Assembly: GCA_045541975.1 (NCBI GenBank)
Contig: JAZQKB010000041.1
Location: forward strand, 40-64,039
Reading direction: 5' to 3'
Length of the DNA stretch: 64,000 nucleotides
Origin: Clostridia bacterium
GTDB taxonomy: Bacteria; Bacillota; Clostridia; UMGS1840
Shown: positions 10,355-56,821 of the stretch, one piece after another
How positions within the stretch are numbered: the stretch's first letter is position 1
How the letters are laid out: the number at the start of each line of letters is the position of its first letter
The notes under the pieces: model-generated
What the model saw: the letters and a program-made list of their open reading frames with translations, nothing else
What the model was told of the DNA's origin: nothing
Database searches by the model: none
Made by a program: the position numbers and the translations under genes

Positions 10355-10362
10355 TTGTTACC

Positions 10363-14012: not shown

Positions 14013-14265
14013 ATAGACAAAATAATATAGTTTGGTTCGACCAAAAACTACAATTTCTGAACGAACCGTATTCTGGGTGGCGCTTCCAGTGGGGAGGTGC
14101 TGCCGGCGAGGACAACGTCAACTTCTATAAAAAGGGTGGACTTTGTCCGTTTTGTCGTCTGATAAAACGTTATCGGAAACGGTTTTTCATGAGTTGAGGT
14201 TCCGGAAAAACCGACGTGTTCCAAAAAAACGCAAAAACATTAAAGTAAGGTGGAATGAGAGAAAC

Positions 14266-15291: not shown

Positions 15292-15309
15292 GAAAGGAGA
15301 TTGATTGAC

Positions 15310-16197: not shown

Positions 16198-16293
16198 TTC
16201 TGAAAATCCCCTATACTATTATATATTATATAGGGAAAAACTTCCCCATTTATTTTGTAAAAATAAAATACATATAAAAAGGAGAAAAACATT

Positions 16294-21200: not shown

Positions 21201-22202
21201 AGAGTTTTTGCTTGGGAATATAACCCGGATGACTTATATCAGGTAGGCGTAATTCCGGACGTAAACCGTTGGGTATTAGGTCAGGAATATGATGATTTCT
21301 TTGAAATCAGCCATTCCAAACCCACCGTGTATGCAGGCGGTCACTTAGGTGACACCAAACCCGGTGAATGGGTATCCTTTAATGTTCACGTTGAAGATGA
21401 AGGCAACTACAAACTGTCTATCCGTGGTTCCGATGGTTGGACCGGCGGTGAAGAATGTACTGCAAAGCTGACTCTGGATGATGAAGTTATCGCAGATGGC
21501 TTTGTTATCAAACGTGGCGGTTGGGATTTGAAAAACTTTGAAGTTGGCAATGTATACTTAACCAAAGGCGACCACGTCTTCAAAATGGAAGTTCAGGGTA
21601 ATGACTGGATGGTCGGCGGCTTCATCTTTGATAGCGGTAAGCTGTTACCCGATGATCCCAATTATGATGAAGGTATGCTGGTAGACCAGGCAACCTTCGT
21701 GGAACGCTTCTCCGAAGGCTTCCAGGATATTGATGATCACTGGGCATACTACAACATTCTTGACATGACTGATGCAGGCTACATCAAAGGATACGACGCA
21801 AAAACCTTTGGTCCCGATGATGCAGTTACCTTACATCAGGCTTGTATGTTAACCTTAAGAGTTATGAACGACACTTCTGATGACACCAACTGGAAAGAAC
21901 AGGCTGCCCAACAGGGTATGCTCAAATCCGTAAACGAAGCGGATGCTCCTGTTTCCAGAGAACGTTTCATCGACATCCTGATGAAAGCATACAAACAGGT
22001 TGTTGGCAACTATACCATCGTGGTTGACAAAGAATACTGCTCTGATGCCAATGCAATTGCTGATCAGTACCGCAATGCTATCTACGGTGCAATTGATCAG
22101 GAACTGATTGAAGGCTATGAAGACGGCACCTTCCGTCCGCAGAATACCTTAACCAGAGCAGAAGCAACTACCGTATTATATCGTTTTACCGATAAATTCT
22201 AA
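18279..22202 (+). CDS. Secreted SLH-anchored GH141-like enzyme: 2x CBM6/35-like, beta-helix, CBM, 3x SLH
   Basis: Signal peptide; IQAEDFD and YTVNV..G.Y CBM motifs; YVAPNGSD..DGS..PFAT, YTGISVGWGWG, DGAHIYTLG, GGIYLDE beta-helix motifs as in GH141; FQDIDDHWAY...FRPQNTLTRAEA SLH repeats. Confidence 0.8.
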   Translation: MKLMKKSFCLLLALMMLFSISIIAHAEESTPFKQHNLPGTINMADFDLGGPGVGHSRMNGSTEAWAEDYRDDATLNFYTSPVLHMGSMPPMWYQYTVNVTKPGTYDVYGSAAAMYGVTFGVTVDGVFAGEGSISASGNWSNFWSGKVATVEMTAGKHVIRIDHTGAGANIYELRFEYMGEVSKINLAPTEGPYRFHYLPTRIQAEDFDVDNFYSVDGEGNGSSDYRKKSVMDLNVDEYEELEDDVWYEYEKTSLALKKGEFVTYTVNVENAGAYALAINAIKNSSITAYLDGIELAVADVAGCTYRNSQEIATVWVPEGEHQLKIFCHDKSAEIDFINFLETDEPSYKLDDFKQDTEEETEEVKLLANVYKDIYVAPNGSDENDGSKAAPFATWQRANEEVQKYNAEMTGDIVVHFAGGNYPVKEMMTMDEKISGKNGYKVIYKGDELLNPPVFNGGTQITGWQPQEGSPIWVADASHVEDTRNMYVNEFPAVLAKSRYRYTASELYKIEGSKYDSDGLVVPLTNFPKKLTHPEDMMIVWPILWTTSRTPVETAFYSDTAVTFKMTQPTWTCATSLGGMGHLDVDPSDAFYLENAIELLDEPGEFFFDKYAKKIYYYPYQEEDMTTADVWVSTTEKLLNMSGSSLQSKVQNVEFNNLRFQYGAWNEISKTGMKENQTDQYLIASTNDAIWHKEIMKPAQVTIEAAQYIDIKNCEFVNLGSNCLNMTNGVLNSNVVGNLFRDSAATGLVVGNWNHKVELNDDQERCEYITVSNNLFHRVAYEHCGSAALAVYYPAHTVIEHNDVRDVPYTGISVGWGWGAWNPPEVRDIHVLSNYVENVTSQNFDGAHIYTLGRMEESTIKYNHLVDSGDTRGGIYLDEASAAITVEENVVQRAANPIFARAGAIIRDIYANNNYVDTDYTGFTAETEDSHRNRIDVTYHILDGKWPARAQEIMADAGLEDQYSHLLKEAEYPEWRVFAWEYNPDDLYQVGVIPDVNRWVLGQEYDDFFEISHSKPTVYAGGHLGDTKPGEWVSFNVHVEDEGNYKLSIRGSDGWTGGEECTAKLTLDDEVIADGFVIKRGGWDLKNFEVGNVYLTKGDHVFKMEVQGNDWMVGGFIFDSGKLLPDDPNYDEGMLVDQATFVERFSEGFQDIDDHWAYYNILDMTDAGYIKGYDAKTFGPDDAVTLHQACMLTLRVMNDTSDDTNWKEQAAQQGMLKSVNEADAPVSRERFIDILMKAYKQVVGNYTIVVDKEYCSDANAIADQYRNAIYGAIDQELIEGYEDGTFRPQNTLTRAEATTVLYRFTDKF

Positions 22203-22379: not shown

Positions 22380-25300
22380 ATGAAAAAACTTATTAGTATT
22401 TGCTTAGTACTGTGCATGCTCTTAGGTATGGTAAGCGCATTCCCGGTATCAGCAGCTCTCACCTGGCCCGGTGCATACAACGGTTTAGGTGCTGAGTACA
22501 AAAACGGCTACGTTTCCACCGTTGGAGACTATGTAGCAGCATTCAGAAAAAGCGGTGCAGACGGCACTGCAGAAGCAGGTGTAGACTATCAGGCAACCTC
22601 TTCCGATCCCTGGGGTGCCGATGGCGCATTCGTTCAGGTTGTTGGCGACTGGGCTTATTTAGAAGTTGATATGCCCTACACCGGCGTTTATGTAATGCAG
22701 ATGCATAACGCCTGGCTTGCTAGCAGTTCCGCTGTTTACCATGTAACCACTGACGAAGGCTATGCAGCTGAATTTAACATCACTAACACCGGTTGGTCTT
22801 CCGGTTGCGGTCAGGACCAGCCCATCTACTTAAAATCTGGTCTGAACGTGATTAAAGTTGCTCTGGTTGGCGGCGGCAATGCAATTATCGACGGTCTTGA
22901 CTTCGGTGCAATGAACGCTACCAGTGCAGAAAAATCCTTAGACTACTTACCTAACGTTAAATTAGCAGACGATTTGGTAGTGCCCACTCCGGCACCGACT
23001 CCCACTCCGAAGCCGGTTTATCCCGAAGGCTGGGATGGCGTAGTTGAAAATCATCCCGATTACAATGCAGATGCAGAAGCATTATACATTGATGCATTCA
23101 TGCCCAATATGTCTTCTGACGAAGGTATGGAACAGTTTGGTACTGACTGGAGCTATTCAGACGAAACCGGTTCTGTTCCCAACAAAGGCCAGGAAGACGG
23201 TATCTACTTTACTCCCGGCACCACCGCAACTTACACTTTAACCGTTGCAGAATCCGGCGTATATGCTGCACAGATTAAGGTTGGTAACGGTAACGGCACC
23301 ACCGCACATATGGAGTTGAAAAACACTGTAGGCGGTGTAGAATACATTGCTCGTTATGCAATCCCCAACATTGGCTCCTGGGGTGGTCTCTGGACTAACG
23401 ATGCGAATATTATGAAAGACGATTTGATTTATCTGCAGGCTGGTGCAAACGAAATTACCTTAACCAACGTTGGCGAAACTGGCGGCGTTGTATACTATGA
23501 CAGTGACTACGGTCTGTTAAACAACACTGATTTCTACATGACCTATGTTGGTACTACCGAAGATCCCGATAACACCTGGCCTGAAGGCTGGACCGGTAAC
23601 GTTCGTAACTGTGCTGACTGGACCGGTAGCTACACCTCTGCCTATGGTGGTAACAACTTAGCATTAGATTACGATTCTCTGTATATTCCCATTCCCTATA
23701 CCGAAAACGGTATCGCATTAGACGGCGTTTGGGTAAACTACACTGTAACTGCTCCCGCAGCAGGTATGTATTTAGTAACTGCAGAAGCTGCTGAAGCTTC
23801 CGGTGAACTTACCTTAACCAATCAGAATGGTGATTATGTAATCTTTGATTTGGCAGATGCTACTCCCGAATATATTTGGTTAGACGAAGGCGATAACACT
23901 ATCACTGCTACCGGTAGTGCTGAATTTGTTAGCGCAACCTTCTATCAGCTGAACAATTCTGATGACTATCTGTCTCAGAACAAAAACGTAAACGATGTTC
24001 CCGAAGTTGCAACTGATCTGACCATTAAACCTTATTCCGACAGAACCAATGACTCTGGCTTCTATCGTTGGAGCTCTTCCTACGAAGCAGTTGTTCAGTA
24101 TTCCGGTTCTTCCATGACCTACGATGTAAACTGTGCATTCCCTGGAATTTACAGAGTACAGGCAAAAATCGGTGGTACCACTGGTCCTAGCTATCCCGTT
24201 ATCACTATTGATACTGATGCAGACGAAGGGTACCGTGCAAAGCTGGCTACCAGTTATGTAGATGACTGGGGTACTTGGAGATCAACCGATGAAAACGGTG
24301 CATATCAGTATGTATACTTAAAAGAAGGCGTTAACAAGGTTGTTGTTACCGCAGGCGGCACTCACCACGTACTGTGGAGTGTTGAATTTAAACTGTTAAG
24401 CGCAGAAGAAGAAGCATCCATCACCATGGATGACTTAACTAAAACTCCTCCGTCTGACCTGGTAATCAATCCTTATACCGATTCTATCGTTGAAACCGAA
24501 AATGTGGACTATCACATGATCAATGGTCGTAACCCGGATAATAAACCCGCTTTAGGTTCTTCTATCGGTACTCAGTTGATGAGCGGAGAATGGCAGAGAT
24601 TTGAAGTAACTGCAAAAGTTGCAGGTTACTATCGTGTTGCTACCACCGCTGCAACCTACGATGCAGAAGCTACTATTGCAGTAGAAACTGACAATACCAT
24701 CGCTTCCGTTAAACACGTTACCAGCCCCGATAACTACAGAACTTTTGAAGGCGATGTAGTTTATCTGGACGAAGGCGTAAACTCCATCTGGGTACAGAAC
24801 CTCGGTGGCGGTTGGGTATACTTACAGAGAATTACTTTATCTTATGTAGACGACATGACCGATGTTACCATTAGAACCTTTGTTCAGGGTCATAACTTCA
24901 TTGGTGCATCTGCAAATCCTGCAGAAATTACAAAATATACCGTTAGAAATAACTACTACGGTCTGCACATGGGTGATACCAGCAACACCGGTGCTGATAC
25001 TGAAGTGTTATCTTACAATGTAACCATTCCTGCAGACGATTACTACGGTTTGGTTATGACTGCTACGATGCCTCTGACTCCCACTATGAAGGTTACCATG
25101 AATAACGGTACTGATGACATCGTAATCTTTGAAGGCGAACCTGCATACTTCGGTAACGAAAACGAAGCTAACAGCTTAACCTTAAATGCTGATAAAGTTT
25201 ATTTAGCAGCTGGTGACTACACCATGACCGTTTCCTACACCGAAAATCCGGATGCAGGCAGCGACTCTATGATGATGGCTCACGTTCACGGTTATGAATT

Positions 25301-25811
25301 CACCACTTTAACCCGTCAGGATATGTTCTTAGCTGCTATGCAGGCTGCAGGAACCACTGATGATATCGCGGATGCTTTAGCAGAATTTGAAGATATCATC
25401 AAGTCTGAAATTTCCTTAACTCCGGAAACTGACTTCATCTATCCTGAATATGCATACAATGCATTATTAAACTGCGCTATGCTGGAAAGCGGTTCATACG
25501 AAACCTATGATGATGTAAAAACTGCATATGACTTTGCGAAAAATATGATTGCTGTGGCAGACGACGGTACCGGTTCCTTAGTTTACACCGTTCAGGTTGG
25601 TGACTGGAACGCACAAGATACTATGGTTTTAGTTGCAGTATACGCTGGCGAGCAGTTATACATGATGGGCGAAGGCTATCTGAACTATACTGAAGCTACT
25701 GGTACTTATATTCCTGTAGAAGCTACCTTATATGACTATGTTCCTGAAGATGGGGACACTATCAAAGTATTCATCTGGGATAGCTTTGACGGATTGAGAC
25801 CCGTATTCTAA
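22380..25811 (+). CDS. Secreted non-catalytic protein with about six tandem CBM-like beta-sandwiches, a helical module and a C-terminal beta domain
   Basis: Signal peptide; six recurrences of G.Y...(I/V)YL..G.N.(I/V) motifs; PT linker; no recognisable catalytic, SLH, LPxTG or dockerin motif; ends IKVFIWDSFDGLRPVF. Confidence 0.7.
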   Translation: MKKLISICLVLCMLLGMVSAFPVSAALTWPGAYNGLGAEYKNGYVSTVGDYVAAFRKSGADGTAEAGVDYQATSSDPWGADGAFVQVVGDWAYLEVDMPYTGVYVMQMHNAWLASSSAVYHVTTDEGYAAEFNITNTGWSSGCGQDQPIYLKSGLNVIKVALVGGGNAIIDGLDFGAMNATSAEKSLDYLPNVKLADDLVVPTPAPTPTPKPVYPEGWDGVVENHPDYNADAEALYIDAFMPNMSSDEGMEQFGTDWSYSDETGSVPNKGQEDGIYFTPGTTATYTLTVAESGVYAAQIKVGNGNGTTAHMELKNTVGGVEYIARYAIPNIGSWGGLWTNDANIMKDDLIYLQAGANEITLTNVGETGGVVYYDSDYGLLNNTDFYMTYVGTTEDPDNTWPEGWTGNVRNCADWTGSYTSAYGGNNLALDYDSLYIPIPYTENGIALDGVWVNYTVTAPAAGMYLVTAEAAEASGELTLTNQNGDYVIFDLADATPEYIWLDEGDNTITATGSAEFVSATFYQLNNSDDYLSQNKNVNDVPEVATDLTIKPYSDRTNDSGFYRWSSSYEAVVQYSGSSMTYDVNCAFPGIYRVQAKIGGTTGPSYPVITIDTDADEGYRAKLATSYVDDWGTWRSTDENGAYQYVYLKEGVNKVVVTAGGTHHVLWSVEFKLLSAEEEASITMDDLTKTPPSDLVINPYTDSIVETENVDYHMINGRNPDNKPALGSSIGTQLMSGEWQRFEVTAKVAGYYRVATTAATYDAEATIAVETDNTIASVKHVTSPDNYRTFEGDVVYLDEGVNSIWVQNLGGGWVYLQRITLSYVDDMTDVTIRTFVQGHNFIGASANPAEITKYTVRNNYYGLHMGDTSNTGADTEVLSYNVTIPADDYYGLVMTATMPLTPTMKVTMNNGTDDIVIFEGEPAYFGNENEANSLTLNADKVYLAAGDYTMTVSYTENPDAGSDSMMMAHVHGYEFTTLTRQDMFLAAMQAAGTTDDIADALAEFEDIIKSEISLTPETDFIYPEYAYNALLNCAMLESGSYETYDDVKTAYDFAKNMIAVADDGTGSLVYTVQVGDWNAQDTMVLVAVYAGEQLYMMGEGYLNYTEATGTYIPVEATLYDYVPEDGDTIKVFIWDSFDGLRPVF

Positions 25812-25834
25812 AAAATGTTTTAAACAAAAGGACT

Positions 25835-25931
25835 TTGGCAGGAGCGATATGCTCCTGCCAACCCTGATGTTTTCTCGTAACTCTATTGAGGAAACATTCT
25901 GCAGGCGAATGGGTTTGCAGAATGCTTCCTC
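25835..25931 (+). other. Two intergenic stem-loops without U-tracts
   Basis: TTGGCAGGAGC/GCTCCTGCCAA (11 bp perfect); GAGGAA-A-CATTCTGCA/TGCAGAATG-C-TTCCTC. Confidence 0.7.
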
Positions 25932-25985
25932 TGTAGAATTGCGGCATCTTAGTTAAAAAAATCTCAAAGAGAGGTAATTAAAAAA

Positions 25986-28900
25986 ATGAAAAAACTGTTG
26001 TCTGCAATTCTTGTTATTGCAATGCTATGCAGTATGTTGGCGAGCTTTACTGCCTTCGCCTACACCGAAATTCATATTCTTGCAACCGATTTCAGCTTGA
26101 CAAGCGGAGAATATAAAGATAATTCTCCCAATAGTTTCGATAATACCACGTACTTAACAAAATACTTCCCCGTGGAAGTATACAGCGGAAACTATGGTAC
26201 TTTTGTGGAAATGCTGAATGGCGAATGGCTGACTTACCGTGTGAATGTGGAGCATGCAGGAACCTATACCCTGGCACTTGACGCAGGAACCTCCAGTCAA
26301 ACTTCTGCTACTGTTACTGTAAACGGTACAGAATACAGCATCAGCTTACCTTCCACCTCCGGTGTGCTGGAATTCACCGAAATGAACAATCTAGCAAGTT
26401 TTCCCTTACACGAAGGTGTGAATGAAATTATTTTAGAAAACTCCGGCAGATACTATTTTAACTACCGTGAGCTGATTTTATCTTCCTCCGTAGGCCCCAA
26501 TACTGAAGCTGACTACGAAGAAGAAGAGGGCATTATCTGGTGGGGAAATGCCAGATGGGAAACCGGCTACAATGGCTACTACGGTGATTTTTCCGCAACC
26601 GATTTTACCGGTGACTATTCCGGTACCGTTGGTTCCGGCACCTTTACCATGGAACCCGGTGACTTCGCAACCTACACCTACAATGCACCCTACACCGGCG
26701 TGTATGCAATGCAGATTCAAGTTTCCTCATTACCGGAAGGAACTGCTGCAATCCGTGCCGTATCCGGTGACTACTATGCAGAATTCTTTATGGCATATCC
26801 CGGTTGGTCCAACAGTAACGATAACCTACAGGATCAGCCCATGTATTTTACTAAAGGCGCAAACACCGTTGTGGTAACCAATGTTGGTGATGCTACGGTA
26901 ACCGTGAGTGCCTATGACTTTGGTCGTCTGGATGCCACTGGCAGCAATTCTCTGGATTTTCTGCCTCTGGTGAGAAAAGTAGCAGATATGCCGGCAGAAG
27001 GAGCAACCCCTACCTTCTGTCCTACTCCGACTCCTACGCCCTCTCCGGTTGCAACTGCAACTCCTACGGTAGCGCCAACCGCAACTCCTACTGTAGCGCC
27101 AACCGCTACTCCTACGGTAGCGCCGACCACGAAACCCACCGCAACCCCGACGGCAACACCCACACCCACTCCCACACCCACTCCTACTCCTACTGTGGAA
27201 CCAACTGCAACTCCGACAGCAACACCTACCCAGGTAACTACCTGGATCGGTAACGTAAAACAGGAGCCTGCATTTAACGGTTACAGCGGGGAAGTGGCTG
27301 CAACCAGCTTCAGCGGTGAATATTATGCACAGGCTGACCATATCAGCGGTGATAATTTCACCATGTCCAACGGCGAATGGGGAACCTACACCTTCAATGC
27401 TCCCTATACCGGCGTCTACGGTGTTCAGCTGAGAGTTAATTCCATCAGCGGTAAAACCACCGTCCGTATGATTTCAGGCGATTATTATGCTGATTTCCCG
27501 CTTTCCGTCACTGGTTGGACCAATCAGAGCGGTGTGCTTGTTGACCAGCCCATGTATTTCACCGAAGGGGCAAACACCTTTACCTTAAAAAATATCGGAG
27601 CAAATGAGGTAACCTTATCTGATTTGGATTACGGCTACTTAAATGCCACAGGATATGACTCTATGTCTTATATGAGTTTTGTGAAATCGGTATCTTCTAT
27701 GCCGGCAGAACCTGTGTATACTCCGACTCCGACTGCAACTCCAACTCCTACCGCTACTCCGACTCCCACTCCTCCCTCTGTAAACCCCGATGTGTCCGAC
27801 AGAGTGATGAGAACGGTTTACGAAGCAGAAAGTTATACTTCCGGTACCCTCACAAAAACTACTTATGACAGTGTTTCTGTTGGAAAAGCTACCAACACCT
27901 CCACTGCAACCTACACGGTAACCGTGGAAGAGGACACCATTTACAACTTATATATGAAAGGCGCTGCCTGGAAGGATGTATCCTACGATATTTCCATTGA
28001 CGGAACCGTATATTATTACGAAACTTCCCATTTCCACAGCGACCGTTCCTCTACCTATGCCTACAATGAAGAATGTGTGGTTTCCTTCCCCTTATCCAAA
28101 GGAACTCACACCCTTGGCTTCACCTTCTACTGTGACGAATTTTATTTTGATTCCTTCACCTTAGAAGATACCTATTCCAAGCAGTATCAGATTCTGTACG
28201 GATTAAAAGATATTGCAACCTCTCAGGGAATTTACGAAGCATTGCTTGCCTCCGGTGACTACATCTATGTGGATGTGGCAGCCGATACAGAAAGCCTGGC
28301 ATATCCGCCCATGTCTTTCTGGGGAATGGTTGGCAAAGATTACGAAACTCCCGCTGAATTAACAGCACTTTACGAAGCTGTGTTGGAAGAGGAGCTTGAA
28401 AATCCCACCGTTAGAATCAGAAATGCTTCCAATGTGGCGGTAACTACCTTACCGGAAGGCAAATCTACTGTAACGGTAAACTGTGCAAAAATCCCTACCA
28501 ATATTACTTTGATCTGTGCCATTTATAATAATGGTAAATTAACCCAGATTCCGCAGACGGCACAGAGCAATTCTTCCTCTGTTTCCTTTAGCTTAGCTGA
28601 TGTAGAAGCAGGAAGCAACTTAAAAATCTTAGCAATTGCCAATATGGAAGAAGTAACACCGTATACTTCCTCCGGTACCTATATGGACTTCTATGTAGCA
28701 ACTACCGGCAAATCTACCAATGACGGATTAACTCCCGATACTCCTGTTGCCACTCTGGCACAGGCGCTGACCAAAGTGAAAGCTGTCAATTCCGAAATGA
28801 GCGGTGACATTATTGTTCACGTAGCACCTGGTGTATACCGCAGTAATGTAACCATTGAAATTGACCAGACCATGAGCGGTATGAACGGCTATAAAGTCAT

Positions 28901-30560
28901 CATTCAGGGTGACGATCCAGACAACCGCCCTGTATTCTCCGGTGGAGAACCCTTAACCGGCAAATGGTCCAAGGTTTCCGGCGAAAACTATTGGGTAGCT
29001 ACTACCTCCACCCGTGAAACCAGAGCGTTGTATGTTGGTGGCTACCAGGCGGTGCTGGCAAGAAGCTCCGGCACTTATGACGGCTCTTACATTACGCCTT
29101 CTTCTCCGAAAAATGATTATCATATCGCAGACGGTCTGAAGGTAAGCAGATCCAGCTATCCCGATTTCCCCACAGGCTTAGAAGGGGAAACCAGAATGCA
29201 GATGGTGTATAACTTAGCTTGGGCAAATCAGCGTTTCCCCATTGACAGTGTTACCTACGATTCCAGCTATGCTTATATCAATGCAACCTATCCCTACTAT
29301 AACGCATTCTTGGGAAGTGGACACACTTCCACTGTTATGCCTACAGAGGGAAGAGATTTCTACTTAGAAAACGCCATGGCGCTTTTAGATCAGCCCGGCG
29401 AATTCTATTTTGATAAAGCGAACCGCAAAATGTATTACTATCCTTATTCCAATGAGGATATGACTACCATTGAAAGCTACTGTGCAGTAACCGACGGTCT
29501 GCTGACCATTCAGGGAACTTCCACTACCAACCCTGTGCAAAATTTTGAATTTCGCGATATTTCCTTCCGCTATGGTGCCTGGGATGATGCCACCACCTAC
29601 GGTGCAGCATACAATCAGGCAGACGAGCTCCGTCGTGGCACGGAAACCGGATTCAGTCAGAATCTGATGCCGGCGCAGATTATGGTAAGTTATGCAGATG
29701 CTTTAGTGTTTGACGGCTGTGAATTTGCTTGCCTTGGCTCCAGCGCTATGTATATGACTGAAGGAGTTGTAAATTCCAAAGTGGTAAACTGTGATTTCCA
29801 CGATATTTCCGGCGGTGGCGTTTCGGTTTCCAACTACCTGCACAACAGTAACTACAGTGGCGGTATCCGTTGTAAAAACATTGAAATCGGTAACAACATT
29901 TTCCGCCGTGTGGCTCAGGAATTTATGAACTTGCCTGCCATTGCGGTATACTATGTGGATTCTGCGAACGTTCATCACAACGATATCAAGCATCTGCCCT
30001 ATACCGGGATTTCCATCGGTTGGGGTTGGGGTTACTATGAACCCACCGATGTTGGTAATCACATTGTTTCTTACAATAAAATCACCGAAGTCTGCCAGGT
30101 GTTAGACGACGGTGCGCAGATTTACACCTTAAGTGACCAGGAAAATATGCACTTAAACGATAACTACTTAATTGATCCGGGTAACTACCGCCGTGGCGGT
30201 GTGTACTTTGACGAAGCAACTGGTTACATTTCCATGTGTGACAATGTTGTGGAAGGCGCAAACGATTCCGGTGACTTCTGGCTCTTTGCAAGAAAATACG
30301 TAAACTTAAATGACAACTATGTAGCGTATAACTACACCGACGGTGGTAACCCCAAATCTTTCGCCACCTTCCCCTTAGATACCTCCGGTGTAACCTACGC
30401 AACCAACTATATCAATCAGACATCCTGGAACACGACAGCACAGAGAATTATGGCAGAAGCAGGATTAGAAGACAAAGAAAGAGTTGCCAATGTGGATTAT
30501 TATCCCTCCTGGCGTACCCTTCCCATGTTTAACCTTCCCGCAGATGCAATCATTGACTAG
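25986..30560 (+). CDS. Secreted multimodular GH141-like enzyme (CBM, 2x novel module A with PT linker, CBM, helical + beta module, C-terminal beta-helix)
   Basis: Signal peptide; [41 protein letters not shown]. No SLH or dockerin. Confidence 0.8.
27057..27128 (+). repeat. 3x 24-bp tandem repeat encoding ATPTVAPT, inside a Pro/Thr linker (about 27007-27230)
   Basis: gcaactcctacggtagcgccaacc / gcaactcctactgtagcgccaacc / gctactcctacggtagcgccgacc. Confidence 0.85.
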
Positions 30561-30638
30561 TACAGAATCCGGCTGGACCTGCTAATCTTTTGTCCGGCTT
30601 ACAAATACAAACAGAAATGTTTGAAGGAGGATTTTCCA

Positions 30639-33600
30639 TTGAGAAACGAAATCAAAAAGCTGTTGTCCATCTGCTTACTCGTTGCTATGATTTGCAGCAT
30701 GATGGCGTTCCCCGTAAGTGCGGCACCCACCTGGACCGGTAAATTCAGCGATTTATCCGGTTATACCAACGGCTATGTTGGTGAAAACTATGCAATGTCT
30801 ACCTTTACCAAAAGCGGTGCAGATGGCTCTTCTGTTTCCGGCACTGACTACTATGCAACTGCATCGAATCCGTTTGGTGCATCCGGTGCCTTTACTATGG
30901 TTACCGGCAACTGGGGCAGATATGAATTAACTGTTCCTTACACCGGCGTATATGCATTCCAGTTGAGAACTGACTGGTTCGGCGGTTCCGGTACCGGCTA
31001 CCGTGTAACCACTGAACATGGCTACTATGCAGAATACAGTATTTCCGATACCGGCTGGAGCTCCGGCGGTTTGCAGGACCAGCCCCTTTATTTGAAGGAA
31101 GGTACCAATATTATCACCATTGAATGTATTGGTCCCGGTAATGCAATTTTAGGCGCTTGGGACTTAGGTCGTCTGGATGCGCAGGGTGCAGATTCTTCTT
31201 TAGATTTTCTGCCTCTGGTAAAATTGACTTCCGATTTACCGGAAGCAACTGCAACTCCTGAACCTACTGAAACTCCCACTCCCACCGAGGCTCCTTTAAC
31301 CTGGCCCGGTGCTTACAGCGATTTAGATGAAAATTATAAAAACGGTTATGCCGGCGAAGTATATACGATGACCACCTTCACTAAAAGCGGTGCAGATGGA
31401 TCCTCCGTTTCCGGCACTGACTATGTGGCAACCTCCGGTTCACCGTTTGGTTCCACCGGCATGTTCACTATGCTGGTAAATGACTGGGGCAGATACGAAA
31501 TCACTGCTCCCTATACTGGCGTATACGCTCTGCAGCTGAGAACCTCGTGGATTGCCGGAGACGGTACCACCAGCTATCAAGTGATTACTGAACATGGCTA
31601 TTATGCGGATTATACCATTACCAATACCGGTTGGTCCAGCGGTATTTATCAGGATCAGCCTATCTATTTGGAAGAAGGTACAAACATTGTTACTATCGTT
31701 TGTACCGGTCCCAATGCGGCTATTTTAGAAGCTTATGATATGGGGCTGTTAAACAAAGGTGGCGCAGAAGCTTCCTTGGATTATCTGGGATTTGTGAAAA
31801 TCGGAACTCCTGCAGTTCCCACTCCGACTCCCACCGCAGAACCCACTGCAGAACCTACTGCAACTCCTACTCCTACTGTAGCACCCACTGCTACCCCGAC
31901 TACAGCACCCACTGCTACTCCTACCGCAACACCTACCGCAACACCTACCGCAACTCCCACTCAGGTAACCACCTGGATTGGGAACGTAAAACTGGAACCC
32001 GCATTTAACGGTTACAGCGGTGAAGTGGCTGCAACCAGTTTCAGCGGTGACTATTATGCGCAAAGCAATCATATCAGCGGTGATAATTTCACCATGGCTA
32101 ACGGTGAATGGGGAACCTACACCTTTAATGCACCCTATACTGGTGTATATGGTGTTCAGTTGTATGTTGAGTCTATTGCAGGTGACACCACCGTTCGTAT
32201 GATTTCAGGCGATTACTATGCGGACTTTGAACTGACCACCACCGGATGGACCAATCAGGATGGTGTTCAGATTGACCAGCCCATGTACTTTATCGAAGGT
32301 GCAAATACCTTTACTTTAAAAAATATCGGTTCCAATTCGGTAATCTTATCCAGCATGGATTACGGCTATTTAAATGCCACCGGATATGACTCCATGTCTT
32401 ATATCGGCTTTGTAAAACCGGTATCTTCTATGCCGGCTGAACCTGTGGTAACTCCCACACCTACCGCAACTCCCAACTATACCGATTCTGAATATATGAT
32501 TATCACCGAAGCAGAAGCCTATACCACTCAGAGCGGTACAACTCAGGGAACTCACGGTAATGCAACTGTAATTACTGCTACTAACGAATCCACCTCTACC
32601 TATACCGTTACCGTTCCCGATACCGGTGTTTACAATCTGTACTTAAGAGGTGCAGCTTGGAAAGACGTTTCTGTTGACATCACTGTTGACGGAACCTATC
32701 AGTCTTATGAAACCATGCATTTCAACCTGCATAAAGATGATACCTATCCTCTGCAGACTGAAAAAATCTATTCTATGCATTTGACTGCAGGTACTCATAC
32801 CCTTACCTTTACCTATTTCTGTGATGTGTTCTACTTTGACGATTTCCGTCTGGAAAACACCAGCAGCAGAACCTATCATCTGTTATACGGCTTTAAAGAT
32901 GCTACTACCTCTCAGGAAGCATACAACATTTTAGTGGAATGTGGCTCTCTGCTTGGCATTGATGTAGAAGCTGACACTGCAAACATTTTCTATCCGCAGA
33001 TGTCCTTCTGGCCCATGGTTAGTAAGGACTACGACTCCTTAGATGCAATGCTTGCAGCATATAACGATATCATTACCAGCGAATCTTCCAGTCCCACCGT
33101 GAAGTTATACAATGTTTCCAACACTCCGGTAAGCACCTTACCCACCGGCACTGCAAGATTGATTATCAATACTTCCAATATGCCTGCAAACTCTACCGTT
33201 GTTGTGGCAGAATATCAGGGCAGCAAAATGGTTGGTAACTTAAATACCTTAACCAGCACTTCCACCACTGTTACCTGTACTTTAACCGGTTTAACCGCAC
33301 AGAGTCAGGTGAAAATTATGGTGTTCTCCGAAATCGAGGAAGCAAAACCCTACTCTTCCTCCGGTGTTTATAAAGATATCTATGTAGCAACCACCGGTAA
33401 ATCCACCAATGACGGTCTGACTCCGGAAACTCCGGTTGCAACCGTTGCACAAGCGTTAACCAAAGTAAAAGCATACAATTCCACCATGACTGGTGACATT
33501 GTGGTACACATTGCTCCCGGTACTTACCGCAGTAATGTAACCATCGCAATTGACCAGACCATGAGCGGTATGAACGGCTATAAGGTTATCTTAAAAGCAG

Positions 33601-35258
33601 AAGATCCCAACAACCGTCCCATTTTATCCGGCGGTGAACCCTTAACCGGTAAATGGAGTAAGGTTTCCGGCGAAGAATATTGGGTAGCTACTACCTCCAC
33701 CCGTGAAACCAGAGCATTATATGTCAACGGCTATCAGGCAACTATGGCAAGAAGCAGTGGCTGGTATATTGCAGACGACGTTATTGCTCCGGAAACTCCG
33801 GTAAATGATGTGCATATTGCAGACGGTTTTAAGGTAAATATTGAACAGTGGGATACTGATTTCCCCAGAAACTTAGATGATGATACCAGATTACAGGTAG
33901 TATTCCAGAAAAACTGGGCAAACCATCGTTTCCCTGTGGAAAAAGTAGTTTATACTACTTATTTAGGTTATGAATACGCATATGTATACATTCCGTTCCC
34001 CAGATATCACATCTTCTTAAACGATGATGCCACTACCTCTACCATTCAGCCTACCGGTTCCTTCTACTTAGAAAACTCTATGGACTTCTTGGATGAACCC
34101 GGTGAATTCTTCTTTGACAAGGCAAACCGTAAGATGTACTACTATCCCTATGCAGAAGAAGATATGACCACTGCAGAAACCTTCTGTGCAGTTACCGACG
34201 GATTAATGACCATTACCGGTGTTGGTGCTACCAACAAGGTTACCAACATGGAATTTGACGGTTTATCCTTCCGTTACGGTGCTTGGGATGAAGCTTCCAC
34301 CAACGGTGCAGCCTTCAACCAGGCAGACGAAATGCGTTTGGGTGGCGAAATCTGGTACGGAAGCTATATGTTCCCCGCACAGGTTACCTTAAACTATGCA
34401 GATAACGTAGTATTTAAAAACTGTGAATTTGCAAACTTAGGCTCCAGTGCAGTTCTCTTTGAAGAAGGGGATACCAACTGCCGTGTAACCGGAAGCTCCT
34501 TCCATGATATTTCCGGTACCGGTGTTGTAGTCGGAAACTTCCTCCACGATGTGAATATGTCTTCCGATAAACAGCGTTCTACCCATATTGAAGTAGACAA
34601 CAACATCTTCCGCCGTTGTGCACAGGAATACTTAGGGACCACCGCAGTTGCGGTATACTATACCGGTGATTCCAAAGTTCATCACAACGATATCGCTGAT
34701 ATGCCTTATACCGGTATTACCCTTGGTTGGGGTTGGGGCGCAGCATTACCTGACGATTGCGGAAACAACGTTGTGTCCTACAACAAGATTGAAGATGTAA
34801 TGCAGACTATGTATGACGGGTCTCAGATTTACACCGTAGGTCTGCAGGGATACAACCAGATTAACGATAACTACTTTATCGATCCGGGCGATCACTTAAG
34901 AGGCGGTCTGTATCTTGACCAGGCAACTCAGGATCTGTACTTCAGCGATAACGTATTTACCGATGCAAAACCCACCACTGACCGTTGGTTATTCGCAAGA
35001 AGATATGTAGATATTGAAAATTGCTACGGTTCTTATAACCATACTGACGGTAAAATGCCTTCCACCGGCGGTTCCTACGGTTTTGACAACTCCGGCGTAA
35101 CCATGGAAAACAATAACGTAAGCGTGACCAGCTGGTCTTTATCTGCACAGAGAATTATGTCCGAAGCAGGTGTTGACAATCAGACCGAGCTTCAGACTGT
35201 AGACTACTATCCGTCCTGGAGAACCATGCGTATGTTAGACGTTCCCGCAGACGAATAA
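30639..35258 (+). CDS. Secreted multimodular GH141-like enzyme, paralog of 25986-30560 (3x module A, PT linkers, CBM, helical + beta module, beta-helix)
   Basis: TTG start at 30639 after AAGGAGG; signal peptide; [40 protein letters not shown]. Confidence 0.8.
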   Translation: MRNEIKKLLSICLLVAMICSMMAFPVSAAPTWTGKFSDLSGYTNGYVGENYAMSTFTKSGADGSSVSGTDYYATASNPFGASGAFTMVTGNWGRYELTVPYTGVYAFQLRTDWFGGSGTGYRVTTEHGYYAEYSISDTGWSSGGLQDQPLYLKEGTNIITIECIGPGNAILGAWDLGRLDAQGADSSLDFLPLVKLTSDLPEATATPEPTETPTPTEAPLTWPGAYSDLDENYKNGYAGEVYTMTTFTKSGADGSSVSGTDYVATSGSPFGSTGMFTMLVNDWGRYEITAPYTGVYALQLRTSWIAGDGTTSYQVITEHGYYADYTITNTGWSSGIYQDQPIYLEEGTNIVTIVCTGPNAAILEAYDMGLLNKGGAEASLDYLGFVKIGTPAVPTPTPTAEPTAEPTATPTPTVAPTATPTTAPTATPTATPTATPTATPTQVTTWIGNVKLEPAFNGYSGEVAATSFSGDYYAQSNHISGDNFTMANGEWGTYTFNAPYTGVYGVQLYVESIAGDTTVRMISGDYYADFELTTTGWTNQDGVQIDQPMYFIEGANTFTLKNIGSNSVILSSMDYGYLNATGYDSMSYIGFVKPVSSMPAEPVVTPTPTATPNYTDSEYMIITEAEAYTTQSGTTQGTHGNATVITATNESTSTYTVTVPDTGVYNLYLRGAAWKDVSVDITVDGTYQSYETMHFNLHKDDTYPLQTEKIYSMHLTAGTHTLTFTYFCDVFYFDDFRLENTSSRTYHLLYGFKDATTSQEAYNILVECGSLLGIDVEADTANIFYPQMSFWPMVSKDYDSLDAMLAAYNDIITSESSSPTVKLYNVSNTPVSTLPTGTARLIINTSNMPANSTVVVAEYQGSKMVGNLNTLTSTSTTVTCTLTGLTAQSQVKIMVFSEIEEAKPYSSSGVYKDIYVATTGKSTNDGLTPETPVATVAQALTKVKAYNSTMTGDIVVHIAPGTYRSNVTIAIDQTMSGMNGYKVILKAEDPNNRPILSGGEPLTGKWSKVSGEEYWVATTSTRETRALYVNGYQATMARSSGWYIADDVIAPETPVNDVHIADGFKVNIEQWDTDFPRNLDDDTRLQVVFQKNWANHRFPVEKVVYTTYLGYEYAYVYIPFPRYHIFLNDDATTSTIQPTGSFYLENSMDFLDEPGEFFFDKANRKMYYYPYAEEDMTTAETFCAVTDGLMTITGVGATNKVTNMEFDGLSFRYGAWDEASTNGAAFNQADEMRLGGEIWYGSYMFPAQVTLNYADNVVFKNCEFANLGSSAVLFEEGDTNCRVTGSSFHDISGTGVVVGNFLHDVNMSSDKQRSTHIEVDNNIFRRCAQEYLGTTAVAVYYTGDSKVHHNDIADMPYTGITLGWGWGAALPDDCGNNVVSYNKIEDVMQTMYDGSQIYTVGLQGYNQINDNYFIDPGDHLRGGLYLDQATQDLYFSDNVFTDAKPTTDRWLFARRYVDIENCYGSYNHTDGKMPSTGGSYGFDNSGVTMENNNVSVTSWSLSAQRIMSEAGVDNQTELQTVDYYPSWRTMRMLDVPADE
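31816..31965 (+). repeat. Pro/Thr-rich low-complexity linker ([24 protein letters not shown]...)
   Basis: Degenerate 12- and 24-bp repeats within the CDS. Confidence 0.8.
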
Positions 35259-35273
35259 TCTAAAATTAAAAAA

Positions 35274-35308
35274 TCCGGAATATGCCTGTTTTTCAGGCAT
35301 ATTCCGGA
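35274..35308. other. Perfect 15-bp stem-loop TCCGGAATATGCCTG-TTTTT-CAGGCATATTCCGGA
   Basis: No U-tract in the sense direction; a T-run follows only on the minus strand. Confidence 0.75.
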
Positions 35309-35368
35309 ACCAAATAATAAAACCCCGCATGACTACGATGTTTTTGCAACTTAAGGAGGGTTCAGACA

Positions 35369-35650
35369 GCGATACAAGTCCGCATAAAAAATTTAGTTTC
35401 ATTTCTTTTGATTTTCACCATGATGGCAAGCATGCTGACGGTCATGATGCTGCAGACAGCTTCTGTTCCTGTTTGTTGTAACCCCAATATGAACAGGGGG
35501 ACCAACTACAGTAAATTAATCAACCGGCCTGCTATCGCACAGATATGTAAGGGAGAAGCAGACGTCACCGATCAATTCCGATTCGACGAGATTAATAGTT
35601 ATCCCTCTTGGAGAATCACACGAATGCTGGATATTCCGGCAAAAGAATAA
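35369..35650 (+). pseudogene. Mini-ORF or remnant: signal-peptide-like N-terminus joined to the C-terminal tail of the GH141-like paralogs
   Basis: RBS AAGGAGG at 35353-59; open frame RIKNLVSFLLIFTMMASML...; ends AQICKGEADVTDQFRFDEINSYPSWRITRMLDIPAKE, collinear with [37 protein letters not shown]. No canonical start codon at the RBS distance. Confidence 0.6.
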
Positions 35651-35815
35651 GTGCTAATTGAGAAAAATTTCAAAATCAGATCAGAACTTCTCATTGTTGA
35701 TTTTTAATACTGTTTTTCAGACAGAATCAAATGTCTTCTGTCCGAAGAACCCCAAATTTGCTAATAAAAATTTTATATATATCAAATTACATGCAAAAAT
35801 TAAGGAGGATTGCTT

Positions 35816-38800
35816 ATGAACCGTAATTTGAAACGAGTGCTCTCTGTAGCACTTATGGCTGTCATGCTGGCAGTGAATTTTGTAATTCCTGCAATGGCAG
35901 CAACAACCGTTACCGTATCCTATACGGACTTATTAACTTATGGCTCCTTGACCGGCAGACAAGGTGAGCTATACTATGAGACCAATGCCAGTTCAGTTGA
36001 ATCTGCTAGCACTAAAAACGGTGCGTATAATCCGTTAGAAGTGTGGTCCAACGTAAACAATGCCGGCTTGAACATAAAAGCCAGTGAATGGGTAAGATTT
36101 GAAGTAACTGCTGAAACTGCAGGCTACTATTCTGTCGGCATGAATGCTGCTGTTGGTGCAACCAACGGTACTGATGTTTACATTCGTACCGAAAGCAGTA
36201 TCACAGAAAAAGATCTTGCAAGAACCGGTACTCAGTATCAGTATACTGATATCACTGATTTAGGATATGTATACTTAGAAGAAGGTTCCAACTACATTTA
36301 TGTAGATAACAAAGGCGGTTCTTATATCAACTTCAGAAGCTTAACTCTGACTTTGGATGAAACTGCTGATGCTACCGATGTAGCATGGTTGGCTCCCATT
36401 GCAAGTGCAAATGAAATTGCTGGCTTGACCGTAGTGTATAATGACGGTTACAATCAGGCAGATGTAAGCGAAGCAACCCTGACCTTCCCCGTAGATATTC
36501 CGTTAGACGGTAAATATCAAGTATCCGTAATGGGGAAAGCCGGTGGTTCTAACACTGTAGCTACTGATTTTGGCGGCGATGCAAAAGAAGCAACCGTTTC
36601 TAACAGTGCATATGGCTACACCGCATTAGGTGTATTCCCCTTAACAGCAGATGAATATACTCTGACTTTAGACGGTTTCACCAACTATAGCTTAGCTTGG
36701 GTAAAAGTGGAATACGTAGGTACTTACAACACGGAAATCGTTAGTGAAACCATTTCCGATGGTGCCACCGTTTCCAGAGGTACCGATAGCTATGTGATTG
36801 AATTGAACGATAACATTGTCTCTGTGGATGCAGCTACTCAGATTACTTTAGCCTCTGCAGAAGACACGATTGAAACCGTTGCAACGGTTGAAGGCAAAGA
36901 ACTGACCGTTTCTTTCAAAGAAACTCTGGACTATGAAACTCCCTACACTTTAACCGTAACCGGCTTAAAAGGTGTATACGATGAAGAAGCGATGGCAGAT
37001 CATGTGGTAACTTTCACCACTGCTGACGAAACCAATACTGACGGTACCGCAACCGTGGAAGTAACTGATGTTACCACTTCCCGTGAAAACGGTACTGTAA
37101 CCGGTATCGTAAAAGGTTCCACCGGCGTTGGAATCAAAGGCAGAGCAGTTACCGTTTATGACAGTTATATGGGCGAAGTTGCAACCGGAGTATCCGGCGA
37201 TGGCGGTGTATTTGAAATTGACTTCACCATTACCGAAACTGTCGCAGGTGTACATACTTACACTGTAGATTCCGAGTACGGCGCAACTGCTTCTGCAATT
37301 GTAAGCTATGTATCCGAAGCAGAAGAATTAGGAATTCTTAGCTTATTTGCAAGTGCAACCACTCCCGAAGCTGTATATAGCATTTTTGAAAACTACGGCG
37401 AAGTTCTGATGGTTCCCACTTACGCAGAAGATTGTGACGCTTTAGCTAACGATGCTCTGTTTTTAGCTCACTTTATGGGCAAAACATTCACTGCAGTTTC
37501 TGAAGTGGCTCCCTTCTACAAGAAAATGCTGACATTAGAAGGTATGAACCAAGCAACCGTTGGTTCCAGAGTGGATGATTATCTGACTGCAGAAATCTGT
37601 GAATTAATCGGCATTGCATCTGATAAATTGGATTTAGTTATTATCAATGACCCCAGCAACAGCAATAAGATTTCTTTTGCAGCAGACATTGCAAGAGATA
37701 CCAACACCAACGGTGCAAGCACCTCTGAAGAAGATTTCAAAGGAAGAATTGCAAGATTACTGGATGCTTGGTTATTAGTGAAATACCAGATTGAGCCCAC
37801 CACTTTAGTTTTACCCACAGAAACCATTTCTTGCAGATATGCAAGTGAAATTGCAATTCCGATCAAGTTTGCAACTGCACAGACCAAAGTAAAAACCATT
37901 GTTGTGACAGTAACTACCGCTCAGGCAGCATTACTCGAAAATGCAAAAGCAGTTGTGGCAGGATTAGCACCTGTTAATGCTGTTATTTCCGGTAATACTG
38001 CAACCTTCACTCTCGACTTTGAAGAAAATGCTGAAAAAGAATATACCGAAGTTGGTAAAATTTCTTTGCAGGCATCCATAATTGATACCCACTCTATCGA
38101 TGTGGCAGCAACTGTTTCCTATCGTTTGACTTCGGATGATAACTATGCGGATATGGACCGTCCTGTAACCGGTGATACCGTTAGTGCAACTGTAACTTCT
38201 TCTATTACTGAAACCCCAAGACCCGTTACCGGTGGCGGTGGATACACCGCTCCTCCGAAGGAGCCTGAAAAAGAAGAGGAAGATACTCAGAAATCCAAAT
38301 ACTTCTTCGACGATATGGCTGACGCTCTCTGGGCTCAGGATATGGTTCATGCTTTAGTTGGAAAAGGTGTTATTTCCAAAAATGATGAAAGAGCATTCCG
38401 TCCCATGGACAATGTAACCCGTGAAGAATTTGTTAAAATGTTGGTAACTGTAGTAGGTACCCACAATGCAAATGCAACCTCCAGCTTAACTGATGTTGGT
38501 GCAAACCATTGGGCAACTTCCTACATTGCAACCGCTCAGGAACTTGGTATTGTTCAGGGCAATGCAGACGGCACTTTCGGCTTAGGTCAGAAAATTACCC
38601 GTCAGGATATGGCAGTTATGGTTTACAGAACCTTTGCTCTCTTAGGGATTGACCTTTCCGCAGGTTCCACCGCATTTGCAGATGGCGGCGATATTGCCGA
38701 CTATGCAAAAAATGCTGTTAGCGCACTGGAAAAACAGGGTATTATCAACGGTATGGGTGATGGCACCTTTGCTCCTGTTTCCAACGCTACCAGAGCACAA

Positions 38801-38845
38801 TCCGCTAAAATTATCTATGCTATGATGGAGGTGTTAGGCGTATGA
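35816..38845 (+). CDS. SLH-anchored scaffold-like surface protein (2x CBM-like, Ig-like domains, 2x helical module, cohesin-like beta-sandwich, 3x SLH)
   Basis: Signal peptide; GYYSVG..GYVYLEEGSN; LTVSFKETLDYETPYTLTVTGLK (Big_5/SbsA-like); GGGGY linker; FDDMADALWA..FRPMDNVTREEF, FGLGQKITRQDMA, FAPVSNATRAQSA SLH repeats. Confidence 0.75.
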   Translation: MNRNLKRVLSVALMAVMLAVNFVIPAMAATTVTVSYTDLLTYGSLTGRQGELYYETNASSVESASTKNGAYNPLEVWSNVNNAGLNIKASEWVRFEVTAETAGYYSVGMNAAVGATNGTDVYIRTESSITEKDLARTGTQYQYTDITDLGYVYLEEGSNYIYVDNKGGSYINFRSLTLTLDETADATDVAWLAPIASANEIAGLTVVYNDGYNQADVSEATLTFPVDIPLDGKYQVSVMGKAGGSNTVATDFGGDAKEATVSNSAYGYTALGVFPLTADEYTLTLDGFTNYSLAWVKVEYVGTYNTEIVSETISDGATVSRGTDSYVIELNDNIVSVDAATQITLASAEDTIETVATVEGKELTVSFKETLDYETPYTLTVTGLKGVYDEEAMADHVVTFTTADETNTDGTATVEVTDVTTSRENGTVTGIVKGSTGVGIKGRAVTVYDSYMGEVATGVSGDGGVFEIDFTITETVAGVHTYTVDSEYGATASAIVSYVSEAEELGILSLFASATTPEAVYSIFENYGEVLMVPTYAEDCDALANDALFLAHFMGKTFTAVSEVAPFYKKMLTLEGMNQATVGSRVDDYLTAEICELIGIASDKLDLVIINDPSNSNKISFAADIARDTNTNGASTSEEDFKGRIARLLDAWLLVKYQIEPTTLVLPTETISCRYASEIAIPIKFATAQTKVKTIVVTVTTAQAALLENAKAVVAGLAPVNAVISGNTATFTLDFEENAEKEYTEVGKISLQASIIDTHSIDVAATVSYRLTSDDNYADMDRPVTGDTVSATVTSSITETPRPVTGGGGYTAPPKEPEKEEEDTQKSKYFFDDMADALWAQDMVHALVGKGVISKNDERAFRPMDNVTREEFVKMLVTVVGTHNANATSSLTDVGANHWATSYIATAQELGIVQGNADGTFGLGQKITRQDMAVMVYRTFALLGIDLSAGSTAFADGGDIADYAKNAVSALEKQGIINGMGDGTFAPVSNATRAQSAKIIYAMMEVLGV

Positions 38846-55697: not shown

Positions 55698-56018
55698 ATG
55701 AAATGCTGTAACCATGACGAATTTGAACTGATCAAAGAATACGACCCAAAGCCTAAAAATCCTGACGGCAGTATCCGTTGGTTTTTATACCGTTGGGATG
55801 ACGGCAAAGACGGCTACCGAAAGCTCATCCGTTGCAAAAGCTGTGGTCGGTATTTTTTGGTGCAATGCTATCGGCTGAATAAGTTTTCAGAAGATGATGA
55901 CAAGTTACATGAGGATTGGTATGCGGTGGAAAACGAACAGCAGGCAGATTATTTAAATCGCACCTACACAGGACCCGAACTGGAAAGAATGTTGAAAAAC
56001 TGGAGGGATAAATATTGA
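55698..56018 (+). CDS. Hypothetical protein (possible metal-binding CC/CxxC)
   Basis: RBS, 106 codons, stop overlaps the next start; RCKSCG motif. Confidence 0.6.
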   Translation: MKCCNHDEFELIKEYDPKPKNPDGSIRWFLYRWDDGKDGYRKLIRCKSCGRYFLVQCYRLNKFSEDDDKLHEDWYAVENEQQADYLNRTYTGPELERMLKNWRDKY

Positions 56019-56772: not shown

Positions 56773-56792
56773 AAGAAATATTTCCGATTGGC

Positions 56793-56821
56793 TTGACAAT
56801 CCTCCAAAAATTTGGTAAACT
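56793..56821 (+). promoter_or_regulatory. sigmaA promoter of the (broken) tRNA-Ser locus
   Basis: TTGACA-17 bp-TAAACT, 16 nt upstream of the tRNA 5' half. Confidence 0.7.

Follow-up and report, generated by a model that had tools for sequence, protein, structure and literature searches.

The anchoring scaffoldins of Clostridium thermocellum cellulosomes, SdbA, OlpA and OlpB, carry one or more cohesins followed by three S-layer homology (SLH) repeats. Cohesin–dockerin pairs also assemble glycosidases outside cellulose degradation, as in Clostridium perfringens, and the type II and type III cohesin–dockerin interactions involve X-module–dockerin (XDoc) dyads, where a dockerin and an Ig-like X module make up a single unit. 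Here, we describe a conserved gene cassette from an uncultured gut Clostridia bacterium (GenBank assembly GCA_045541975.1, contig JAZQKB010000041.1) that suggests a new means of keeping enzymes at the cell surface without dockerins. The scan covered one 64-kb stretch of this genome, hereafter the window, and its six large proteins are named for the start coordinates of their genes (p18279, p22380, p25986, p30621, p35810 and p38842). Three of them, p22380, p25986 and p30621, are exported without an anchor and share a module made of a five-helix unit of ~75 aa packed on an immunoglobulin (Ig)-like beta sandwich of ~85 aa, the beta domain. The cassette also encodes p35810, an SLH-anchored protein with a cohesin-fold sandwich, and p38842, its translationally coupled partner.

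Of known arrangements, anchoring scaffoldins come closest. The likeness lies in the C-terminal half of p35810, where the cohesin-fold sandwich is joined by a linker to the three SLH repeats in the layout of scaffoldins such as OlpA, whose cohesin (3ul4) is among the fold matches, and in the position of the p35810 gene beside multimodular glycosidases that lack an anchor of their own. Unlike in those systems, no dockerin was found here, the p35810 sandwich is invisible to the Pfam Cohesin model, and p35810 has its own carbohydrate-binding module (CBM)-like domains, a Big_5 domain and a ten-helix region; moreover, in place of cellulases there are enzymes of the glycoside hydrolase family 141 (GH141) type, and the locus includes an ABC importer. 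The best TM-scores to the sandwich (0.57–0.69) came from cohesin-like modules of C. perfringens GH84 and GH33 enzymes (2vo8, 2jh2, 2o4e and 2w1n). In C. perfringens, however, the partners are true calcium-binding dockerins, of which none was found here, and the cohesins sit on the enzymes themselves rather than on an SLH protein. As in XDoc dyads, a small helical module and an Ig-like sandwich on the cargo protein are predicted to pack as a single rigid body of two domains, although in the reverse order (helix, then sandwich).

Known GH141 members include the alpha-L-fucosidase BT1002 of Bacteroides thetaiotaomicron and a xylanase of C. thermocellum. Matches to the GH141_M insertion domain and right-handed beta-helix of this family were found in p18279, p25986 and p30621, but the helix–beta module, placed before the catalytic domain, marks a small subfamily, with ~25 representatives among 1.84 billion. 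Gram-positive polysaccharide utilisation loci with wall-anchored enzymes are known from Roseburia and Eubacterium rectale; like them, the present locus combines a regulator, an ABC importer with a lipoprotein binding protein, CBM-bearing surface enzymes and cytoplasmic glycosidases, but with SLH repeats and an uncharacterised beta domain in place of LPXTG/sortase anchoring. The region is the exported half of a Gram-positive polysaccharide-utilisation cassette. Because no dockerin was found and the sandwich lacks sequence membership among cohesins, we do not file the locus as a cellulosome; any cellulosome-like working of the cassette would rely on a different cargo module.

Cassette order and the distribution of anchors

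The plus-strand genes between positions 14143 and 41685 of the window form one cassette. Its order, namely a GH141-SLH enzyme, one to three exported beta-domain proteins, a protein combining CBM, helix, cohesin-fold and SLH regions, and a coupled partner of ~900 aa, recurs in each of the 11 loci whose flanks were long enough, the window counted among them. The first-pass annotation of this DNA had proposed a survey of whether the beta domain always co-occurs with such an SLH scaffold; run at the level of loci, for every module-bearing gene with a readable neighbourhood, the co-occurrence, of the partner too, held from both sides (5/5 from the enzyme side and 6/6 from the scaffold side). On the scaffold side (L003, L008, L009, L010, L012 and the window), the p35810 homologues are 38–64% identical, a GH141 gene with helix and beta domain lies directly upstream of the SLH gene, and an orthologue of p38842 overlaps it downstream. 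The enzyme-side loci (L013–L017) were found from distant module proteins, whose modules are about 20% identical to those of the window. Their lead gene encodes a GH141-SLH orthologue, 32–36% identical to p18279 and also without the module, and each cassette has one or two exported beta-domain proteins. The SLH protein of these loci, 27–29% identical to p35810, shows the first helical unit and the cohesin-fold sandwich in HMM searches, with the second helical subdomain detected in four of the five, and the partner family is conserved at 27–32% identity. Cassette and module distribution are conserved across a deep divergence. Relatives come from uncultured Clostridia of animal guts, some of them labelled Ruminococcaceae or Oscillospiraceae.

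Throughout these cassettes, exported multidomain proteins carry either SLH repeats or the beta domain, never both. Every GH141 gene without SLH in these loci has the beta domain, and six of six GH141-SLH genes lack it; p18279 itself has SLH repeats (Pfam PF00395, E 2e-19) and gave no significant match to the module profile for either helix or beta domain (best 0.15). None of 24 module-bearing representatives has an SLH, dockerin or LPXTG anchor. The other glycosidases whose N-termini were read (GH123, GH89, GH28 and melibiase) have no signal peptide, so that every exported protein, the partner excepted, carries a lipobox, SLH repeats or the beta domain.

The partner gene is tied closely to the SLH gene. 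The start of p38842 overlaps the stop of p35810 by 4 nt, and in all 13 related loci that extend that far an orthologue follows the SLH gene immediately with the 4-nt overlap kept. The protein has no match in Pfam (E<=10), NCBIfam or PDB; its N-terminus is weakly similar to the SLH region (hhalign P 0.005, prob 7%), and weak Pfam SLH matches occur on its orthologues in L015 and L017. By these searches the p38842 family is an orphan family, and the description of p38842 as an S-layer protein in the first-pass annotation was not confirmed.

The helix–beta module and the SLH protein p35810

The modules of p25986 and p30621 are 41% identical (BLASTP E 1e-40). This pair was the only one found in pairwise BLASTP of the modules, the C-terminus of p22380 showing no similarity, and profile methods were therefore needed. 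A profile search of 1.84 billion representative sequences returned just 32 proteins, about 25 of which span helix and beta domain. Most are GH141-type enzymes rich in CBMs, in which the catalytic domain comes directly after the module; three (P0026, P0027 and P0029) are CBM-only proteins that end in the module, as p22380 does. Five matches made up of multiple stretches (P0008, P0010, P0018, P0019 and P0032) were read as spurious, being unrelated proteins, mostly tandem repeats of cadherin-like, WD40-like or FN3-like type. An HMM built from the matches of the representative search, leaving out p22380 and p35810, matched the whole module of p22380 (HMM positions 3–166, i-E 1e-10). A word-index homology search with a single module or with the 26-sequence module alignment gave no matches; since the exhaustive representative search shows that relatives exist, we read this as a limit of the index and not as absence.

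The isolated modules have no match in Pfam or NCBIfam, and PDB sequence searches with both module profiles likewise returned none; neither the helix family nor the beta family has relatives in Pfam, NCBIfam or PDB. Literature searches turned up no description of either module or cassette. An AlphaFold2 (AF2) model of the p25986 module from the 26-sequence alignment (pLDDT 93.9, pTM 0.86) has five helices followed by a sandwich of six to seven strands, and in it the two parts pack as one rigid body. Weak Foldseek matches of this model were generic Ig/FN3-type sandwiches and carbohydrate-binding ones, namely the Wzt carbohydrate-binding domain and CBM51, the latter two at E>=0.007.

Either part of the module may also occur alone. 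The helix is found without the beta domain on SLH proteins of the p35810 type, and the beta domain without the helix at the C-terminus of a GDSL esterase with CBM6 (L014), a CBM protein (L017) and leucine-rich repeat (LRR) proteins of the BspA type (L005, L006 and P0028). The helix is therefore shared by the proposed scaffold and the proposed cargo and does not separate anchored from anchorless proteins, whereas the beta domain does. The discriminating element, or putative tag, is thus the beta domain and not the helix, and it behaves as a mobile terminal tag. These results refine the first-pass annotation, whose quoted peptide strings all lie where it placed them. It had assigned a shared helix–beta module to three anchorless proteins, and the sharing is borne out by profiles and AF2, but for p22380 by profile only, and p25986 and p30621 are full-length paralogues. 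The beta domain does directly follow the helix on all three proteins, but the pairing is not obligatory, and the helical unit does not mark anchorless proteins, as the SLH protein has it too.

Its report that the locus lacks dockerins, which are characterised by a duplicated loop–helix (F-hand) motif of 22 residues that binds calcium, was confirmed. No Pfam match to a dockerin, Dockerin_1 included, was obtained at E<=10 in the six large proteins or the isolated modules, and a regular expression for the calcium loop matched no open reading frame (ORF) of the window or of L001–L009. The helical unit was considered as a degenerate dockerin and rejected, as it has neither a Pfam nor a calcium-loop match and consists of five helices without duplicated calcium loops. 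Cognate dockerin-bearing enzymes were likewise not found in the window or in the related loci scanned. The comparison with XDoc ends here: a rigid dyad of helix and sandwich is predicted, but its helical part is not a dockerin.

From its N-terminus, p35810 comprises two CBM-like domains, Big_5, a CarboxypepD_reg-type region (where the match to that family is seen in orthologues only), a helical unit, a second helical subdomain, the cohesin-fold sandwich and three SLH repeats. The first-pass annotation, which placed the start at 35816 rather than 35810, saw two copies of the helical unit. One is well supported: the helix of the enzymes and the first helical unit of the p35810 family align with an hhalign probability of 96.6% (P 5.6e-10), and the module HMM matches p35810 in its helical part only (aa 510–577, i-E 1e-4; orthologues 6e-8 to 3e-4). 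The second was rejected, the subdomain at aa 585–658 giving hhalign probabilities of 0.8% and 0.6%. Homology between the beta domain of the enzymes and the p35810 sandwich was rejected as well (hhalign prob 0.5%).

An AF2 model of p35810 aa 498–806 from 21 sequences (pLDDT 93.3, pTM 0.84) has ten helices at aa 503–658 and nine strands at aa 673–796. About 22 of its 35 top Foldseek matches in PDB are cohesins (E 5e-5 to 1e-3, prob 1.00, target-normalised TM 0.5–0.69), with 6kgf_C at E 4.8e-5 and 2vo8 at TM 0.69 and rmsd 3.9 among the single matches. The cohesins matched are those of C. acetobutylicum (CohA2), C. perfringens (GH33/GH84), C. thermocellum (OlpA), R. flavefaciens (type III) and A. 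fulgidus (non-cellulosomal). The predicted sandwich thus has the nine-strand jelly-roll fold of cohesins, which measure about 140 aa, and p35810, as modelled, presents a cohesin followed by SLH on a non-catalytic protein at the level of fold only. The "cohesin-like sandwich" of the first-pass annotation accordingly survives as a fold (Foldseek) and not as membership of the family by sequence (Pfam Cohesin, PDB profile). Its enzyme-free SLH scaffold does lack a catalytic domain but carries its own CBM-like domains; by its domain content p35810 is a CBM-bearing glycan binder itself, not a bare scaffold.

Fusions resembling p35810 were seen in two of the related loci, in metagenome-assembled genomes that also carry the SLH cassette (L005 5778–10157; L006 6458–9898 and 10001–14296). 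These BspA-type LRR proteins have an N-terminal part of 790 aa resembling p35810, with the helix and a modified sandwich that contains a Tyr/Asp-rich insertion, followed by LRR_5 and Flg_new repeats and then by the beta domain instead of SLH. Combining a putative receptor region with the putative tag, such variants would fit an adaptor role.

Readings of the beta domain

We tentatively favour, at somewhat short of even confidence, reading the beta domain, whether or not a helix accompanies it, as a surface-retention tag that holds anchorless exoproteins on the SLH/cohesin-fold protein or its partner. The beta domain would stand in for SLH on exported proteins that lack it, and the tagged proteins would be held by the SLH-anchored pair, through the cohesin-fold module or the free helical unit of p35810 or through p38842. 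Such an arrangement would amount to the function of anchoring scaffoldins without dockerins. This reading draws on the confident folds of the modules, the scaffoldin-like layout of p35810, the recurrence of the cassette, the exclusivity of SLH and beta domain, the terminal position of the beta domain on diverse proteins, and the presence of a lipobox, SLH or beta domain on every exported protein but the partner. Beta-only proteins might use the helical unit of the SLH protein as a docking site in trans, a sub-mechanism suggested by the rigid packing of helix and beta in cis in the model. We are more doubtful about the fuller version, in which the same dockerin-free assembly would operate across deeply diverged uncultured Clostridia, with an ~85-aa Ig-like beta tag (often with a five-helix unit), a sequence-orphan cohesin-fold module, the adjacent helix on the SLH-anchored CBM protein or the coupled partner as receptor, and the LRR-fused variants as adaptors.

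Several observations weigh against a retention tag. Two old GH141 lineages and no more than four or five independent events of domain shuffling may account for the exclusivity of SLH and beta domain. Between the paralogues p25986 and p30621, whose identity is a mosaic of 20–92% and whose catalytic domains are 50–83% identical, the beta domain is the lowest-identity segment (about 27%) of the C-terminal half, which is not expected of domains that share a receptor. Pfam Cohesin (PF00963) matches neither p35810 nor any of 21 family members at E<=10, and a profile search of PDB sequences returned no cohesin, so that the likeness to cohesins is one of fold only; in addition, a single cohesin-fold module would have to serve up to three tagged proteins. 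The model of helix and beta has no PDB match in Foldseek at E<=1e-3, and neither dockerin nor XDoc structures are among its matches. Finally, the module of the GH141 enzymes is internal and always directly before the catalytic domain, a position that a structural role fits too.

That structural role is the strongest competitor: helix and beta would be inert elbow or stalk elements, the GH141 enzymes and the CBM protein would be released, p35810 would be a stand-alone glycan binder, and its cohesin-fold domain would be a stalk sandwich. We regard this as possible though doubtful. Besides the fixed internal position of the module, it draws on the presence of the helical unit on both anchored and unanchored proteins, on the rigid multi-domain bodies predicted by both models (pTM 0.84–0.86), on the generic Ig/FN3-like fold of the beta domain and on the CBM6/35-like domains carried by p35810 and its orthologues alike; linkage in an operon would be expected in any polysaccharide-utilisation locus. 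An inert spacer, however, has no reason to come last, yet the beta domain ends CBM-only proteins, the GDSL esterase and the LRR proteins. Nor does it explain that GH141 enzymes do without the module exactly when SLH is present, or that the beta domain is about 90% conserved between the orthologous enzymes p30621 and that of L003, as judged by eye.

C-terminal placement on diverse exoproteins and exclusivity with SLH would also follow if the beta domain bound a secondary cell-wall polymer or peptidoglycan directly, or were a CBM for the substrate, with the SLH protein uninvolved. The occurrence of Wzt and CBM51 domains among the weak fold matches points the same way, as do tagged BspA-LRR proteins in loci without a neighbouring GH141 cassette. 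We nevertheless think direct binding improbable: the beta domain has no significant similarity to known cell-wall-binding modules or CBMs, and this reading gives no account of why the cohesin-fold SLH protein and its partner are linked to it so strictly, in 11 of 11 loci. It is equally unlikely that the cohesin-fold/helical region of p35810 simply binds p38842 to form an SLH-anchored heterodimer or surface lattice to which the enzyme modules are unrelated, a reading that fits the overlap and strict adjacency of the two genes in the 13 loci and the absence of the partner gene downstream of the LRR-fused variants without SLH (L005 and L006), but that leaves the SLH/beta dichotomy unexplained and finds in p38842 neither a dockerin nor another recognisable interaction module.

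Gene content, paralogue history and significance

The features of the locus are collected in Table 1. For the GH141 assignments, we used the Pfam cut-offs of 27.0 bits (GH141_M) and 25.9 bits (Beta_helix). The scores were 43.2 and 24.3 for p18279, 36.3 and 21.4 for p25986, and 32.5 and 44.9 for p30621, respectively; GH141_M is thus above its cut-off in all three and Beta_helix only in p30621.

Table 1. Features of the cassette and its flanks, in window coordinates.
Feature	Position	Strand	Basis
Two-component pair: His_kinase/HATPase sensor and response regulator with AraC-type helix-turn-helix (HTH)	8759..11916	-	Pfam
ABC sugar importer: two BPD_transp_1 permeases and a 642-aa lipoprotein solute-binding protein (lipobox LAAC)	14143..18222	+	Pfam, N-terminus
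p18279: SLH-anchored GH141-type enzyme, 1307 aa; CBM6/35, GH141_M, beta-helix, SLH	18279..22202	+	Pfam
p22380: exported, 1143 aa, CBM-like domains only, C-terminal helix–beta module; signal peptide, no anchor	22380..25811	+	
p22380 helical unit, aa 980-1051	25317..25532	+	helix HMM i-E 9e-4
p22380 beta domain, aa 1064-1142, C-terminal	25569..25805	+	beta HMM i-E 7.5e-7
p25986: GH141-type enzyme A, 1524 aa; CBM-like domains, helix–beta module, catalytic beta-helix; signal peptide, no anchor	25986..30560	+	Pfam
p25986 module: helix aa 731-804, beta aa 806-908	28176..28709	+	HMM E 2e-58, AF2
p30621: GH141-type enzyme B, 1545 aa; paralogue of A, identical domain order	30621..35258	+	Pfam
p30621 module: helix aa 749-822, beta aa 824-926	32865..33398	+	HMM E 5e-62
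p35810: SLH-anchored protein, 1011 aa	35810..38845	+	Pfam, AF2 model, 32 homologues
p35810 helical unit, aa 503-580, homologous to the enzymes' helical unit	37316..37549	+	hhalign, HMM
p35810 second helical subdomain, aa 585-658	37562..37783	+	AF2 model
p35810 nine-strand beta sandwich, predicted cohesin fold, aa 673-796	37826..38197	+	Foldseek vs PDB
p35810 three SLH repeats, aa ~835-1011	38312..38842	+	Pfam SLH (PF00395) E 3e-28, three stretches
p38842: exported partner protein, 947 aa, no known domain	38842..41685	+	

Two observations bear on the history of the GH141 enzymes. Between p25986 and p30621, the third CBM-like domain and the linker are 82–92% identical and the flanking domains 20–53%; this stretch (window 27200–27750 and 31900–32450; aa ~410–590 of p25986 and ~440–620 of p30621) suggests a recent gene conversion or domain replacement. 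At 5852–10808 of L015, an ORF with CBM, helix and beta regions (P0029) is followed after 74 nt by a 561-aa ORF that lacks a signal peptide and whose start coincides exactly with that of the GH141 catalytic domain. Either the assembly is in error here or a GH141 gene has been split or frameshifted; the arrangement hints at an origin of CBM-only proteins such as p22380 from truncated GH141 enzymes. As for gene starts, the listed start of p30621 is a TTG, which gives an N-terminal extension (KEDFPL...) ahead of the signal peptide (window 30621–30680); the first-pass annotation began this gene at 30639. Since the L003 orthologue and P0002 conserve this extension, it is uncertain which codon is the true start.

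The wider context recurs in part among the relatives. A regulator pair likewise flanks the cassette in L013, L014 and L016, and the gene order of the ABC importer is kept in L014 and L016. Upstream of the window cassette, on the opposite strand, a GH123 enzyme gene lies beside the histidine kinase and response regulator genes. Five relatives (L008–L012) have, downstream of the partner gene, a GH89 (NAGLU) gene that lacks a signal peptide and that the window does not contain. Together, the upstream GH123 and the GH89 of the relatives hint at a substrate with amino sugars, possibly a host glycan. Downstream of the partner in the window, the other strand carries genes for a nicotinamide mononucleotide transporter, a nitroreductase and PAP2. 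Farther on, the minus strand at 56000–64000 is low in GC (33–38% versus about 43% elsewhere) and encodes DUF6119, DUF6680, a C5 cytosine methylase fused to an HTH domain and an HTH_17 protein, and looks like a mobile or defence island.

Even without docking, the present analysis defines a conserved, uncharacterised cassette and two domain families outside Pfam that are open to curation. Should the beta domain prove to be a tag for docking or retention, the two orphan domain families and the cassette would provide a sequence handle on enzyme assemblies that Cohesin and Dockerin models miss, and a new interaction pair would become available for designer enzyme scaffolds. For the organisms themselves, it would represent a second and independent answer to the task for which cellulosomes employ dockerins, in gut Clostridia acting on non-cellulosic glycans, where GH141 enzymes are combined with a cytoplasmic GH123 and, in relatives, with GH89.

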